Shown here piece by piece: positions 31,571-35,294 of a stretch of 64,000 nucleotides of DNA; positions within the stretch are counted from its first letter, which is position 1; each line of letters opens with the position of its first letter. A program made the position numbers and the translations under genes. Under the pieces are notes generated by a model that worked only from the letters and a program-made list of their open reading frames with translations, did no database searches and had not been told where the DNA came from. This DNA is from Syntrophorhabdaceae bacterium (GTDB lineage Bacteria > Desulfobacterota > Syntrophorhabdia > Syntrophorhabdales > Syntrophorhabdaceae): contig OY762209.1 in NCBI GenBank assembly GCA_963665295.1, forward strand, positions 4,416,001-4,480,000. The letters are read 5' to 3'.

Positions 31571-32938
31571 ATGAAGATGCTCTATCTTTTTTCCATTTTT
31601 GGATACATCTGTCTTTTATGGTTCGTCAGTATCTATGTGACGAGAAGATCGAGATCGACCGAGGCCTATCTTGTGGCATCCGGGAGCCTTTCGGTCCCAT
31701 TCATTTCAGTCCTCATCGCGGGCACCTGGATCGGTGGGGTATCGGTCGTCGGGATGGCCCAGGGCGCTTACATCCACGGGATAAGCGCCCTTTGGTTCCA
31801 GGCAGGCATCTGGATCGCCATGTGCATAACCGCCCTCCTGCTCCCCCGGATCATGCGGGGCAGGAAAACCTACTCCATACTTGATGTAGTAGGAAAACTC
31901 TATGACGCGAAGACAGCGCGTCTCGCAGGCATTCTTCAGCTCTTTTTCTCCATCTGGGTGGTTACCATGCAGATCGTGGGAGGGGGAGCCATACTGTCGG
32001 TCATTCTGGGTGAACGGATATCGTTCAGGGAAGGGATGGTGCTGACTGCCGCCGTCTTCACGCTGTATAACGTGGTAGGAGGTTTCGTCGCCACCGCATA
32101 CACAAATCTGGTCCATATCTGCGCCATCTTCCTGGGTATATTCCTTGGGGGCTTTTACGTCATATTCAATACCGGATCTCTCGCCCGGATGGCTGTCGAC
32201 ACCGGTGTCTTTCACCCCTTCGGGGATCTCGGGTTAGCCCAGGCCTTGAGTTGGGCTTATATCAACCTTACACTGGGAGTCCTTGCTCAGCCTGTAATCA
32301 ACACGGCTTCCTCCGCAAAGACTCTTTCCGATGGAAGAAAGGGGATTCTTATAGGTAATTTTATCGCCATCCCCGTGGTGGTCATGGCAGCCCTCTGCGG
32401 CATTGCGGCAAAGGACCTCTTTCCCTCCATCCCTTCCCTTGCCGCTTTACCCCGGCTCCTGGATGTCATGCCTCCCGCCATAGGCGTCTTCTTTCTTCTT
32501 GGAATGTGGGCTCCCCTCATGAGTTCAGGTTCTCCTTTTCTGATGGGTGCCACGACCCTGGCGGTTAAGGGCTACATAGGTCCCGCTTTCAGGATCGAAA
32601 ACGATAAAAGACTGCTTCTCGTATCGCGGATAACAACCCTGACGATAGGGGCCCTTTCGCTCTTCCTCGGTCTCTTCGTGAAAGAGATCCTGAGGGAAAT
32701 CACTTGGCTCGCCGTCTTTTTGAGCGCAATAGTTTACATCGTATTCGCGGGCTGGGCAGGAAACAGGGTGTCGAGCGCCCACGCCTTTATCGCTCTCCTC
32801 GGGACCATAGCGATAGTAGCCGCCTCCTTTGCCTTTGGATTCTACAAGCTCATACACCCCGTCTGGCCGGTTACCGTCTACATCGCGATAGTGACGGCCC
32901 CGGACCTCCTCCGGCCCCGGCGGGACAAGGCGAAGTAG
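31571..32938 (+). CDS. Sodium:solute symporter (SSS) family protein
   Basis: YLVA...TWIGG, GG..ATAYT, MSS; about 13 TM helices. Confidence 0.88.
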   Translation: MKMLYLFSIFGYICLLWFVSIYVTRRSRSTEAYLVASGSLSVPFISVLIAGTWIGGVSVVGMAQGAYIHGISALWFQAGIWIAMCITALLLPRIMRGRKTYSILDVVGKLYDAKTARLAGILQLFFSIWVVTMQIVGGGAILSVILGERISFREGMVLTAAVFTLYNVVGGFVATAYTNLVHICAIFLGIFLGGFYVIFNTGSLARMAVDTGVFHPFGDLGLAQALSWAYINLTLGVLAQPVINTASSAKTLSDGRKGILIGNFIAIPVVVMAALCGIAAKDLFPSIPSLAALPRLLDVMPPAIGVFFLLGMWAPLMSSGSPFLMGATTLAVKGYIGPAFRIENDKRLLLVSRITTLTIGALSLFLGLFVKEILREITWLAVFLSAIVYIVFAGWAGNRVSSAHAFIALLGTIAIVAASFAFGFYKLIHPVWPVTVYIAIVTAPDLLRPRRDKAK

Positions 32939-33125
32939 AATCAGCCCTCCGGCCCGGCCTTCCCGGACCGAGGCTTGCTCGATGGAGGCGCGGATACGCC
33001 CTGCCGTGATGTGGCATAATTTTCCTCAGTAGGAATTATTTTCCCATATAGACCCATATACGGCTCTGTGGCCCAGGGACCGATCCCCGTGAAATCATGT
33101 GATTATGTGCGCCCCCGGCAGCTTA

Positions 33126-33141
33126 CGGCATAGGGGTTGCA
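33126..33141 (+). promoter_or_regulatory. Sigma-54 -24/-12 promoter
   Basis: CGGCAT-AGGGG-TTGCA, exact GG-N10-GC spacing. Confidence 0.75.
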
Positions 33142-33212
33142 ACAAATCACGGTTGGAAGGGGCGAGCCAAGACCTACCTCTATCAAACTTCAATCGTTGA
33201 AAGGAGGTCAGT

Positions 33213-33956
33213 ATGATCAGCAGCATCGGCAGCAACAGCAGTTCACTCTATGAGTACCTAATGCAGTTGAGGGCGTCCGGTTCATCAACGTCATCAACGT
33301 CATCCACATCAACGACGGACGATCTTTTCAGCAAGATCGATACGAGCGGAGACGGGACGGTAAGCGAAGACGAGTTCAACACGTTCCGGTCGGAAATGGA
33401 AGCCCAGTTTAAGAACTCCGTAATGACATCGAAGTACGATTCCACGGGAGCCGCCACCTCAACCGACGATCTTTTCAGTAAGGTCGACTCGGACGGGGAC
33501 GGCACGGTAAGCGAAGACGAGTTCGGTATGTTCCGGTCGGCCATGGAATCCCACGGAGCTCCTCCTCCACCGCCGCCGCCGGACTCTTCGGCCTCATCCT
33601 CGTCAAGTTCGTCCATCGACGACCTTTTCGGCAAGATCGATACGGATGGGGACGGCACGGTAAGCGAGGACGAGTTCGGCACCTTCCTCGCCGGCATGGA
33701 GGCTGCAATTGAAAACGTCCTGCTTCAGGGTCAGGACAGTACAAGCATCGATTCCGACACATCCGTCGGCAGCACCGCCGAAGCCGCTTCGTCGGCAACA
33801 AGCGTCAGTACGGCCGCAACAGATTCAACGTCGGACCAGACGGACGGCGCAAGCCTTTTCGCGTCCCTTATTATGGAAGCAATAACCAAGTATATGACCT
33901 TCTCGCAGCCGCAGCAGGGTTCAACGTCTACAGGTCAGATAAGTGTAGCGGCTTAA
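33213..33956 (+). CDS. Ser/Thr-rich EF-hand calcium-binding protein (three EF-hand loops)
   Basis: DTSGDGTVSEDE, DSDGDGTVSEDE, DTDGDGTVSEDE; poly-Pro linker; AGGAGG SD. Confidence 0.88.
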   Translation: MISSIGSNSSSLYEYLMQLRASGSSTSSTSSTSTTDDLFSKIDTSGDGTVSEDEFNTFRSEMEAQFKNSVMTSKYDSTGAATSTDDLFSKVDSDGDGTVSEDEFGMFRSAMESHGAPPPPPPPDSSASSSSSSSIDDLFGKIDTDGDGTVSEDEFGTFLAGMEAAIENVLLQGQDSTSIDSDTSVGSTAEAASSATSVSTAATDSTSDQTDGASLFASLIMEAITKYMTFSQPQQGSTSTGQISVAA

Positions 33957-34001
33957 TGAATTATGCATCTTTTGAGAGAGGAGCATCCCGTCCCGGCAAT
34001 C

Positions 34002-34080
34002 GGGAGTGAGCAAGGCTTCATCTCTCGTATCAGAATCACCTGGCGTGGCATAGAGACTTGAGGTGGACCGGCTCGCCCCC
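34002..34080 (+). repeat. Structured repeat copy 1 (candidate ncRNA hairpin)
   Basis: Shares TCAGAATCACCTGGCGTGGCAT-N4-ACTTGAGGTGGACCGG-Y-TCGCCCCC with copy 2; ends are self-complementary. Confidence 0.8.
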
Positions 34081-34298
34081 CAAACCTCCTTGAAACGCCG
34101 CCTTTCCCCATCGTCGACCTCCCGTATCCGGATTGCGTAAAGAATTGAAGGGCATCTTTGCTCAGTCATTCATCCCGCCGCGACGCCTCGGCGATCACCT
34201 TCCCAAATTTTCGCAGAAAAGGGCAATTCCGTATTTCATCCCGGTATTCACGATCGGTTGTAACCTTTAGGGGATTCTTCGCGACTATGTAGCAAGAA

Positions 34299-34375
34299 GG
34301 GGGCGATCGCTTCACTCTCCTGTGTCAGAATCACCTGGCGTGGCATCTGGACTTGAGGTGGACCGGTTCGCCCCC
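34299..34375 (+). repeat. Structured repeat copy 2 (candidate ncRNA hairpin)
   Basis: GGGGGCGA...TCGCCCCC closing stem; same core as copy 1. Confidence 0.8.
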
Positions 34376-34577
34376 AAAATTACCGTGACAGCTTCGTCTT
34401 ACCACAGTATACCATAATGCCCGTCTTTCGTTCACAAATATTCGCATCGATCGTAAATAACGATGGGGCGCATACAAAACAAGGACCGCGGCAGCACGAC
34501 CGGACCGTTCTCCACCGATCCTCCCCCGGAAAAGAAGGATTGCCCGGGTATGGGCGACGCCGTCCCGGAGGGTGACG

Positions 34578-35294
34578 TTACTCCTTTTCCACGGGAAAAG
34601 TCAGACTCGCGCCAAACCACCCGATGACCGAGACCATAGCGGACAAGGAAAATACCAGTATGAGGTAGATTCCGCTCGAAAACCTCAGGTCCAGAAGAAT
34701 ATCGGGGACTGCGACGCGCCACACAAGGACGACAATGTTGACACCCAGGAGGGCCATTGAAAGCCGTTGTTTGATGGCTACGGGTCTCATGGGCCTTGCC
34801 CTATAGTTGAGCCACCATGTGTAGTAGCCTGTGGCCATAGCTACGGGAGTGAAGGCAAGCCCTGCCCCGAGGCAATTCAAAGCTGTCACTTCGAAACCCG
34901 GGACACGGGTGAACAGGAAAAGTAAAGTAAACAGGCCGGCGGAAAACATAAACACGATGGGGAAGTGGACCGTCATGGGGTGCGGATGACGTTTCAATAC
35001 GGGATATTGCCTAAGCAGTCTTGACAGCGAAGGGGGGACCTGTCTCTCACTTTCCTGTCCCTTTTTCAAAGTGCCCACTTGCGGGTACCGATCGAGCATC
35101 TCAGGCCCGTGGGGAGCCGCGGAAATGTCCGCGGTCAGGTCAGCGCCCCCATGGTGACGCTGCATATGGAAACCACCGGTCCACAGACGGCTGCCACTCA
35201 CGTCAAAGACCCTATTCCCGTGGGCCACGTACACAGGCTTTCCGTTCTTACCGTCGGCTTCCGCAAGCTCCTCAGGAGTGATTTCTTTCATCAA
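34578..35294 (-). CDS. Cytochrome b5-like domain fused to a DUF2231-like membrane domain
   Basis: DGKNG.PVYVA...VFDVS.S.LW.GG.H...H..G.DLT...APHG; HP..VHFP. Confidence 0.82.
   Translation of the reverse strand: MMKEITPEELAEADGKNGKPVYVAHGNRVFDVSGSRLWTGGFHMQRHHGGADLTADISAAPHGPEMLDRYPQVGTLKKGQESERQVPPSLSRLLRQYPVLKRHPHPMTVHFPIVFMFSAGLFTLLFLFTRVPGFEVTALNCLGAGLAFTPVAMATGYYTWWLNYRARPMRPVAIKQRLSMALLGVNIVVLVWRVAVPDILLDLRFSSGIYLILVFSLSAMVSVIGWFGASLTFPVEKE

Follow-up and report, generated by a model that had tools for sequence, protein, structure and literature searches.

Three described bacterial messenger RNAs (mRNAs) come closest to the arrangement reported here. In Staphylococcus aureus, the motif UCCCCUG in the 3' untranslated region (UTR) of the icaR mRNA pairs with the Shine-Dalgarno (SD) sequence, blocks initiation and creates a site for ribonuclease (RNase) III (PMC3868564). 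In Bacillus subtilis, a 14-base-pair (bp) helix between the 5' UTR and the 3' UTR of the hbs mRNA modulates cleavage by RNase Y (PMC5737220), and in the tac/fbi fold-back of the hok mRNA the partner of a 5' element is the 3' end as long as the mRNA is full-length and silent, and an internal box once the 3' end has been trimmed (PMC9841398). The gene analysed in this work encodes an EF-hand protein and lies in a stretch of 64,000 nucleotides (nt) from a Syntrophorhabdaceae bacterium (assembly GCA_963665295.1, contig OY762209.1, positions 4,416,001 to 4,480,000 of the forward strand; hereafter the window), whose genome, G000, is a single contig of 5.5 megabases (Mb). Its mRNA is predicted to close on itself end to end, through pairing in cis between a two-part leader box in the 5' UTR and the 3' arm of a hairpin element in the 3' UTR. 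By analogy the unit would work like icaR, hbs and hok, with end-to-end closure and alternative pairing partners, and it is a member of none of them. The case is built on conservation, covariation and folding, from which we infer closure in the cell and its effect; a real, functional RNA-RNA closure is considered probable on these grounds, with substantial room for doubt. Such closure would be a rare kind of bacterial gene control, which here is so far a computational prediction.

Two 73-nt copies of the element, 84% identical, lie downstream of the stop codon of the gene (34021-34093 and 34316-34388). An initial annotation, made from the letters of the window, had described complementarity between the 5' UTR (33159-80) and copy 1, with 10 perfect pairs plus 7 that include one G-U, and this was confirmed by direct reading, a repeat finder and RNAduplex. 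Leader box 1, GGGGCGAGCC at 33159-33168, and GGCTCGCCCC at 34070-34079 were returned by the repeat finder as a 10-nt inverted repeat with 100% complementarity; box 2, CTACCTC (33174-80), forms 7 pairs with GAGGTGG (34060-66), one of them U-G, and the combined 10+7 pairs between leader and copy-1 arm amount to -34.6 kcal/mol (RNAduplex). The corresponding match to copy 2 also held: GGTTCGCCCC at 34365-34374 is 90% complementary to GGGGCGAGCC, and the sole mismatch is a G-U pair in RNA, the one more G-U that had been noted. Among 20,000 random 50-nt windows of the genome, 59 (0.3%) bound the copy-1 arm as strongly as the leader does and 24 contained an exact complement to it of at least 10 nt; the match alone is therefore only moderately unlikely, and the weight of the argument rests on conservation and covariation in other loci.

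Leader box and 3' arm are taken to lie on one transcript because no terminator was found between them. Between 32900 and 34700 the only plus-strand terminator-like site is at 33002-16, upstream of the gene, and no plus-strand G+C-rich stem followed by a T-run was present between 33957 and 34700; the copies are followed by CCAAAC (copy 1) and AAAATT (copy 2), with no T-run. The transcription start site (TSS) near 33151 is predicted from the promoter, and the 3' end is likewise predicted.

The motif is not a degenerate genome-wide repeat, which had been raised as a possible objection to the initial annotation. Repeats resembling repetitive extragenic palindromes (REP) or miniature inverted-repeat transposable elements (MITE) were considered and rejected, since only two copies exist in the 5.5-Mb genome, both 3' of the EF-hand gene. 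A 22-mer core, for which 0 occurrences are expected, is present twice in the window, a 15-mer core is found exactly only at the two copies in the whole genome, and in a whole-genome BLAST of the element only the two copies were real, the other 9 of the 11 listed matches having E >1. The covariance model R1, likewise, gave 2 hits in G000. A known RNA family was also rejected: the only matches listed in a permissive Rfam 15 cmscan of 32500-35000 were two, at E 0.8 and 3.7, which are unrelated and fall well short of their gathering scores.

The same layout was recovered in eight other loci (L032, L033, L034, L036, L084, L057, L062 and L064) from Syntrophorhabdaceae, related metagenome-assembled genomes (MAGs) and other genera. 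These class-A loci have in common upstream GGAAT-N4-TTTCC sites, a GGCA[CT]-N5-TTGC promoter motif, a leader box GGGGCG[AG]GC...(A)CCTCA, an SD AAGGAGGTT, an EF-hand open reading frame (ORF) and a 3' UTR element ending in ...GAGGTGGACCGGCTCGCCCC. Mean pairwise identity is 0.76 for the 3' arm and 0.66 for the leader box, compared with 0.36 for the coding sequence and 0.20 for the leader before the box; the 3' arm and the leader box are the best-conserved stretches of the whole unit. Every element can also be folded as a long imperfect hairpin with its own local 5' arm, which makes the local arm a competitor of the leader, and the 3' half of this hairpin is far better conserved than its 5' half.

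Transcripts were folded at equilibrium over their full length, starting at the predicted TSS and stopping where the element ends. Pairing between box 1 and the 3' arm had a probability (P) of at least 0.9 in eight of the nine loci and of about 0.8 in L062, and in G000 box 1 paired with the copy-1 arm at P 0.83 when copy 2 was included in the fold. The duplex of leader and 3' arm was more stable than that of local arm and 3' arm in 9/9 loci (for example -34.6 vs -31.7 kcal/mol in G000, -32.2 vs -22.2 in L032, -24.0 vs -12.6 in L062 and -29.4 vs -11.2 in L057), and cognate leader-arm pairs were stronger than non-cognate ones (permutation p 0.0056).

Covariation in orthologous loci, a check proposed in the initial annotation, was assessed on a MAFFT alignment of the nine whole transcripts over the 17 pairs of the G000 helix. 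These pairs are formed in 85.6% of the cells (9 sequences, 17 pairs), and at most 49.7% remain paired when the partners are slid by 1-3 columns. Both sides have changed in 7 of the 17 pairs, a number reached in 0/500 shuffles, and the covariation score is 0.219 vs 0.119 +/- 0.019. The L057 leader reads GGGGCAAGTCGG-GGTTACC against an arm GGTAAA-CCGACTCGCCCC; here position 9 of box 1 has gone from C-G to U-A, the spacer is matched as AGTCGG/CCGACT and box 2 as TTACC/GGTAA. Similarly, the L064 leader carries GCTTGC opposite GCAAGC in the arm, and one-sided changes to G-U were seen in L036, L034 and L064. In silico, the unit therefore has complementary UTR segments within one predicted transcript that are conserved in its relatives, and the cis part of the proposed long-range pairing stands in all nine class-A loci, where it co-varies and is predicted to outcompete the local pairing; the proposed action in trans is unlikely, as set out below.

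Several points weigh against a functional closure. The nine loci are few and related, and five have an identical 3' arm; the changes on both sides come mostly from L057, L062 and L064, the most divergent sequences, in which the column alignment is uncertain, and box 2 of L057, shifted by one column in the alignment, was scored as broken. Canonical terminators lie 40-60 nt past the 3' arm in L032 and L034, so that the arm is not the very 3' end in these loci. Equilibrium folding ignores co-transcriptional folding and ribosomes, and the local arm, which is made immediately ahead of the 3' arm during transcription, could win kinetically. The in-silico effect on the SD is small. Seven sequencing runs were found, one of which is a metatranscriptome; mapped on 32900-34600, it gave two 151-nt contigs, both inside the ORF (33313-33453 and 33619-33769) and none on the UTRs, which are uninformative on transcript ends and hint, at most, at transcription of the gene or of a close relative. 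Two partial DNA runs, X4 and X5, have their breaks at GATC sites; by our own reading they resemble proximity-ligation libraries.

Two further points count against closure and at the same time favour an account with no pairing function at all: two paralogues (L035 and L068) keep a box-like leader without a 3' partner in cis, and the leader box of L057 shares an A.C mismatch with the local arm, as would equally be expected from gene conversion or from a protein partner common to both. According to that account, leader box and hairpin arms are one motif kept for other reasons (a protein site on RNA or DNA, DNA-inversion repeats or duplication relics), and the 3' hairpin is merely a 3'-end stabiliser or a U-less terminator. 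The resemblance between leader box and local arm, the ability of all elements to form plain hairpins and the placement of box and arm as inverted repeats flanking the ORF agree with it. It is nevertheless judged quite improbable, because the hairpin 3' half is so much better conserved than the 5' half, which is unexpected for a palindromic DNA site, because several changes preserve pairing solely as G-U and are thus relevant to RNA only, and because lineage-specific matched changes (L064 GCTTGC/GCAAGC; L057 AGTCGG/CCGACT) fall outside the fixed motif. Furthermore, neither copy is followed by a terminator-like T-run, DNA contigs were seen in one orientation only (contigs do hide rare variants), and a second helix of the 3' UTR, P1, co-varies as well.

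P1 is formed by segment 1, which starts 16-22 nt after the stop codon across the loci, and the distal part of the local 5' arm (segment 2); segment 2 thus has two possible partners, segment 1 in P1 or the 3' arm in the local hairpin. With the 3' arm omitted, P1 was present in the minimum free energy (MFE) fold of the 3' UTR in 8/9 loci, and in four (L032, L034, L062 and L057) it was present even with the 3' arm included. P1 sequences vary among loci yet remain complementary: cognate duplexes averaged -20.5 kcal/mol vs -16.2 for non-cognate ones, with 0/20000 permutations as low, a test that overstates independence because the loci are related. RNAalifold on a MAFFT alignment of the 3' UTRs returned no P1 consensus, and column-wise pairs fitted only 4/9 rows because of shifted gaps; P1 was therefore evaluated by per-sequence folds and the alignment-free comparison of cognate with non-cognate pairs. 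By tying up the local arm, the competitor, P1 would leave the 3' arm free for the leader. The initial annotation had lacked the local 5' arm resembling the leader box, its sequestration by P1 and the sigma-54 promoter.

Box 2 has alternative partners of its own. Its ACCTC resembles an anti-SD, just as the GAGGT of the 3' arm resembles an SD, and the real SD and the 3' arm therefore compete for it: it can pair either, as GACCT.CCT (33171-79), with the SD region or else with the GAGGTGG of 34060-66. In its MFE fold the G000 leader forms a hairpin, GACCU.CCU/AGG.AGGUC, that covers the SD, bearing out the earlier proposal that this leader can hide it; the fold is no stabler than shuffles (z +0.72; 152/200 shuffles fold as well or better). 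Without the 3' arm, the mean unpaired probability of the SD is low in G000 (0.02), L036 (0.01), L032 (0.08) and L084 (0.19), intermediate in L062 (0.34) and L033 (0.42), and high in L034 (0.66), L057 (0.72) and L064 (0.84); the hiding hairpin is clear in 4/9 loci, partial in one or two more and absent in L034, L057 and L064.

From these alternatives an SD switch had been proposed, in which the leader hairpin hides the SD until the 3' arm of the completed mRNA captures box 2 and turns translation on. The fit of box 2 to both SD and SD mimic and the hidden SDs of G000, L036, L032 and L084 speak for such a switch, as do possible compensations, by our own reading (GACCT/AGGTC in G000 vs AACCT/AGGTT in L032, and ATCTC with the SD GGAGAA in L064), and a P of about 0.8 or more between 3' arm and most of box 2 in L033, L062 and L057. 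When the 3' arm is included in the folds, predicted SD accessibility increases only slightly in G000 (0.02 to 0.06), L036 (0.01 to 0.02) and L032 (0.08 to 0.19), and it decreases in L057 (to 0.33), L062, L033 and L084; the main partner of box 2 in G000 is still the SD (P 0.62, vs 0.28 with the copy-1 arm). Given also that the SD is open without the 3' arm in L034, L057 and L064 and that the leader fold has no excess stability, this switch, although a reasonable idea for a design, is regarded as unlikely, and the capture of the anti-SD that the initial annotation envisaged is only weakly borne out. Directly after copy 1, the stretch ACCTCCTTGAAACG is complementary to the SD region itself. It is unpaired with the SD in the MFE fold and specific to G000, other loci keeping only GTGAAAC, so an icaR-like role as anti-SD is not borne out by conservation.

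Closure in cis has also to be set against action in trans, by which the element or stand-alone hairpins such as copy 2 would serve as small RNAs that pair with the leaders of their own and paralogous EF-hand mRNAs. Stand-alone copies away from 3' UTRs do exist: besides copy 2, an inverted copy lies 500 nt 5' of a paralogue in genome G043 (L035), and a variant hairpin followed by a T-run lies between a divergent gene and the upstream activator sites (UAS) in L033. The leader of this L035 paralogue, which is without a 3' element of its own, has retained both boxes, and its predicted duplex with the L032 arm has -32.6 kcal/mol. Against this, tight closure is predicted for the stand-alone copies (-39.1 and -41.8 kcal/mol), whose arms have drifted off the leader sequence (GGAGGGTG/CACCCTCC in L035, GGGGGAGGGG/CCCCTCCCCC in the upstream hairpin of L033). 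About 0.3% of random genomic windows bind the arm like the leader does, many of them better (down to -47.8 kcal/mol), and in a genome-wide target scan with the 3' arm the leader was not the best site by duplex energy; with thousands of equally good genomic sites, specificity in trans would be poor. A role in trans is therefore rated as unlikely, and so is the earlier suggestion that copy 2 acts on the leader in this way.

Copy 2 folds at -39.1 kcal/mol (z -2.19; 6/200 shuffles equally stable), stays closed in the long fold that includes it (P 0.16 with box 1) and is without a P1 partner. No counterpart was seen in the orthologous 3' UTRs, so copy 2 is specific to G000, and no promoter was found 5' of it. 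Its origin as the leader of a decayed tandem unit was rejected, since the sequence ahead of it has no similarity to the region of UAS, promoter and leader (local score of 15 vs 16.3 +/- 2.0 for shuffles; 243/300 shuffles at least as high). Most likely, copy 2 is a recent, closed duplicate of the hairpin part and not a regulator; it may perhaps serve as a 3'-end structure. The stand-alone hairpins near other EF-hand genes, at L033:733-830 (+) and L035:1976-2072 (-), have arms that have co-varied to the other sequences given above and keep the apical motif GCGTGGTATCTAGACT; retention of this motif while the arms differ suggests that it has a sequence-specific role of its own.

Compared with the described systems, the EF-hand unit resembles icaR in pairing its 5' and 3' UTRs through SD-like and anti-SD-like sequences (PMC3868564). 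It differs in that the icaR anti-SD pairs with the SD itself, whereas the 3' arm of the EF-hand unit is an SD mimic that pairs with boxes 20-50 nt upstream of the SD; complementarity of the 3' UTR to the SD itself was seen only in the stretch 34084-97, which is specific to G000. Organism, promoter type (sigma-54) and sequences are also unrelated, and the pairing in the EF-hand unit is a computational prediction. With hok it shares a 5'-terminal element that pairs with a 3'-terminal element of the full-length mRNA, multi-helix and mutually exclusive pairings, and a predicted alternative partner for the 5' element whose choice would bear on SD accessibility, an effect that in the EF-hand loci is small and not conserved in 4/9. 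Unlike hok, the unit is without a small toxin ORF, an antisense RNA (no antisense promoter-like site was found) or evidence of 3' processing, its product is a 247-amino-acid EF-hand protein, and, while the closed hok form is silent, the effect of closure here may go either way. The long-range helix is of similar length to that of hbs, where it modulates RNase access to the leader and thereby stability; hbs, from a Firmicute, relies on RNases Y and J1. Set against icaR, hbs and hok, the decoy local arm and P1 have no described counterpart.

In the mechanism we propose, the EF-hand gene would form a self-contained sigma-54 transcription unit in whose mRNA the leader box, GGGGCGAGCC-N5-CTACCTC, finds its cis partner in GAGGTGG-ACC-GGCTCGCCCC, the final segment of the structured 3' UTR, giving an interrupted helix of about 17-23 bp. 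The stop-proximal helix P1 (segments 1 and 2) would occupy the 5' arm of the hairpin and so free the 3' arm. The effect of closure would most likely be control of mRNA stability or of translation initiation, in either direction. Because the 3' arm is present only on complete transcripts, closure could tie expression to completion of the mRNA; alternatively, it could shield both mRNA ends from RNases. A more elaborate form, which we regard as speculative and quite improbable, is a whole-transcript switch with three partners, in which the 3' arm is either held by the decoy local arm or clamps the leader and pulls the anti-SD mimic off the SD. P1, lying 16-22 nt after the stop codon and so just outside the footprint of a terminating ribosome, would set the state, and initiation on the mRNA of a calcium-binding protein induced through sigma-54 would thereby respond to ribosome traffic or transcript completion; such a circuit would also include the closed stand-alone hairpins that carry the apical motif.

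If closure of the EF-hand mRNA is real, it would provide a comparative, sequence-defined example in which no part of the unit is better conserved than the two partners, and these co-vary between genera of a hard-to-culture or uncultured syntrophic lineage. The design would be unusual: the leader has an anti-SD mimic and the 3' UTR an SD mimic, with a decoy arm and an arm-releasing helix besides. The comparison would also define a small sigma-54 regulon, marked by tandem GGAAT-N4-TTTCC sites, around bacterial EF-hand proteins. To our knowledge, the roles of such proteins are largely unknown, and the known cases of pairing between 5' and 3' UTRs rest mostly on single species. A full-text literature search, not extended further, returned no paper joining Syntrophorhabdus and EF-hand, and a search on long-range bacterial UTR interactions in which most terms were required together, also not extended further, returned none; absence from print is thus to be read within the scope of these limited searches and the Rfam scan.

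Table 1. Positions, in window coordinates, of the features of the EF-hand unit and of the second copy of its 3' element.
Feature	Position	Strand	Sequence	Description
Tandem upstream sites	33013..33044	+	GGCATAATTTTCC and GGAATTATTTTCC	Direct repeat about 100 nt 5' of the promoter
Sigma-54-type promoter	33127..33141	+	GGCATAGGGGTTGCA	GG-N10-GC (-24/-12)
Leader box 1	33159..33168	+	GGGGCGAGCC	Pairs with 34070-34079
Leader box 2	33174..33180	+	CTACCTC	Anti-SD mimic; 5-nt spacer after box 1
Shine-Dalgarno region	33200..33209	+	AAAGGAGGTC	3 nt 5' of the ATG at 33213
EF-hand ORF	33213..33956	+		247 amino acids, three EF-hand calcium-binding motifs
Segment 1	33974..33984	+	GAGAGAGGAGC	Lies 18 nt past the stop codon; 5' strand of helix P1
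Segment 2 (local 5' arm)	34002..34026	+	GGGAGTGAGC...GCTTCATCTCTC	Resembles the leader box
Apical region	34027..34056	+	CCTGGCGTGGCAT-N5-ACTT	Conserved in alignments
3' arm of copy 1	34057..34081	+	CTT-GAGGTGG-ACC-GGCTCGCCCC-CC	SD mimic and box 1 complement; partner of the leader
Stretch directly after copy 1	34084..34097	+	ACCTCCTTGAAACG	Complementary (12/14) to the SD region 33195-33208
Copy 2 hairpin	34299..34375	+	5' arm GGGGGCGATCG.CTTCAC.CTC; 3' arm GAGGTGGA.CCG.GTTCGCCCCC	

The 247-amino-acid product is matched by Pfam EF-hand_7 in three stretches (E 4.2e-19). Within the ORF, 33294-33706 consists of three units of about 147-153 nt that are 72-77% identical, each with one EF-hand loop (DxDGDGTVSEDEF) and with Ser/Thr/Pro-rich linkers between them. 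The predicted sigma-54 promoter is supported by GGCATAGGGGTTGC at 33127-40, by upstream activator sites and by RpoN, which the genome encodes (rpoN); no sigma-70-like site was found in 32900-34700. GGCA[CT]-N5-TTGC is at the same place in 4/4 aligned leaders and is matched in 11/12 class-A loci, with CGCAC at this position in the broken gene L064. The loop sequence TGGCAT-N5-CTTGA was considered as a second sigma-54 promoter and rejected on reading: the spacing differs by one from that required, GA stands in place of GC, and in L034 the invariant GG is GA.

The tandem sites GGCATAATTTTCC and GGAATTATTTTCC are likely to be binding sites of a sigma-54 activator, and motifs of the GGAAT-N4-TTTCC type are found about 100 nt 5' of the promoter in all class-A loci. 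That these sites are shared suggests a small regulon of one such activator. The tandem motif was seen upstream in L033, L036, L034, L032, L035 and L068, and in the class-B loci L051, L052 and L059 it lies 5' of a different gene, with a product starting MIGSIAQGYAARAL. In L034, by our reading of a translated end, an NtrC-type helix-turn-helix gene ends just 5' of the unit.

The neighbours of the EF-hand gene in the window encode a sodium:solute symporter, a cytochrome b5/DUF2231 protein and UbiA; as these are unrelated and are not kept beside the orthologues, the gene and its control regions look self-contained. A minus-strand terminator-like hairpin with a T-run (34484-34501) lies 3' of the convergent cytochrome b5/DUF2231 gene (34578-35294, minus strand), and the 3' end region of the EF-hand transcript faces it across about 100 nt.

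The distribution of the unit was surveyed at several levels. In a DNA search of the family, 3 of the 68 other genomes matched, although G011 did so merely by 20 nt of the spacer that separates the copies, and a protein search found an EF-hand homologue in 17/69 genomes. A pattern scan of genome contigs gave 5 loci, from MAGs of Syntrophorhabdaceae, Syntrophorhabdales and 'Syntrophus sp.'; a metagenome pattern scan gave 20, comprising 9 true elements by the model and 11 that were low-scoring or unscored. The 9 true elements are nearly all near-copies of L036, L084 or L033 and add little diversity. Strong model hits were obtained in only 3/69 family genomes, with none in three genomes of the same genus, and the unit is therefore patchily distributed.

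EF-hand genes of class B (genus g6 and others) have a different promoter region, no box and no element, and the paralogues L049 and L050 are also without box and element. Five class-B loci of genus g6 (L051, L052, L053, L059 and L066) share an upstream region ...TAGTATATCGATTGCA..., unlike the class-A sigma-54 promoter, and have an in-frame TGA/TAA after ...GSSLYA followed by an open frame; this is probably a true stop and then a chance open frame. L064 (G044:C27) has the looks of a decaying class-A gene, with internal stops, a promoter changed from GG to CG and a degenerate 3' element, and its leader and 3' arm are still matched (GCTTGC and GCAAGC) despite the decay. Finally, the EF-hand paralogue L068, on the minus strand at G000:C1:4611836-4612219 and so outside the window, shares the upstream sites and has TGGCACGCCCATTGCA as its promoter. 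In the predicted fold of its leader (-43.1 kcal/mol), the box-like sequence GGGGCGCCG... is paired with a complement that immediately precedes the SD of this gene, and the gene ends in a plain terminator without the 3' element.

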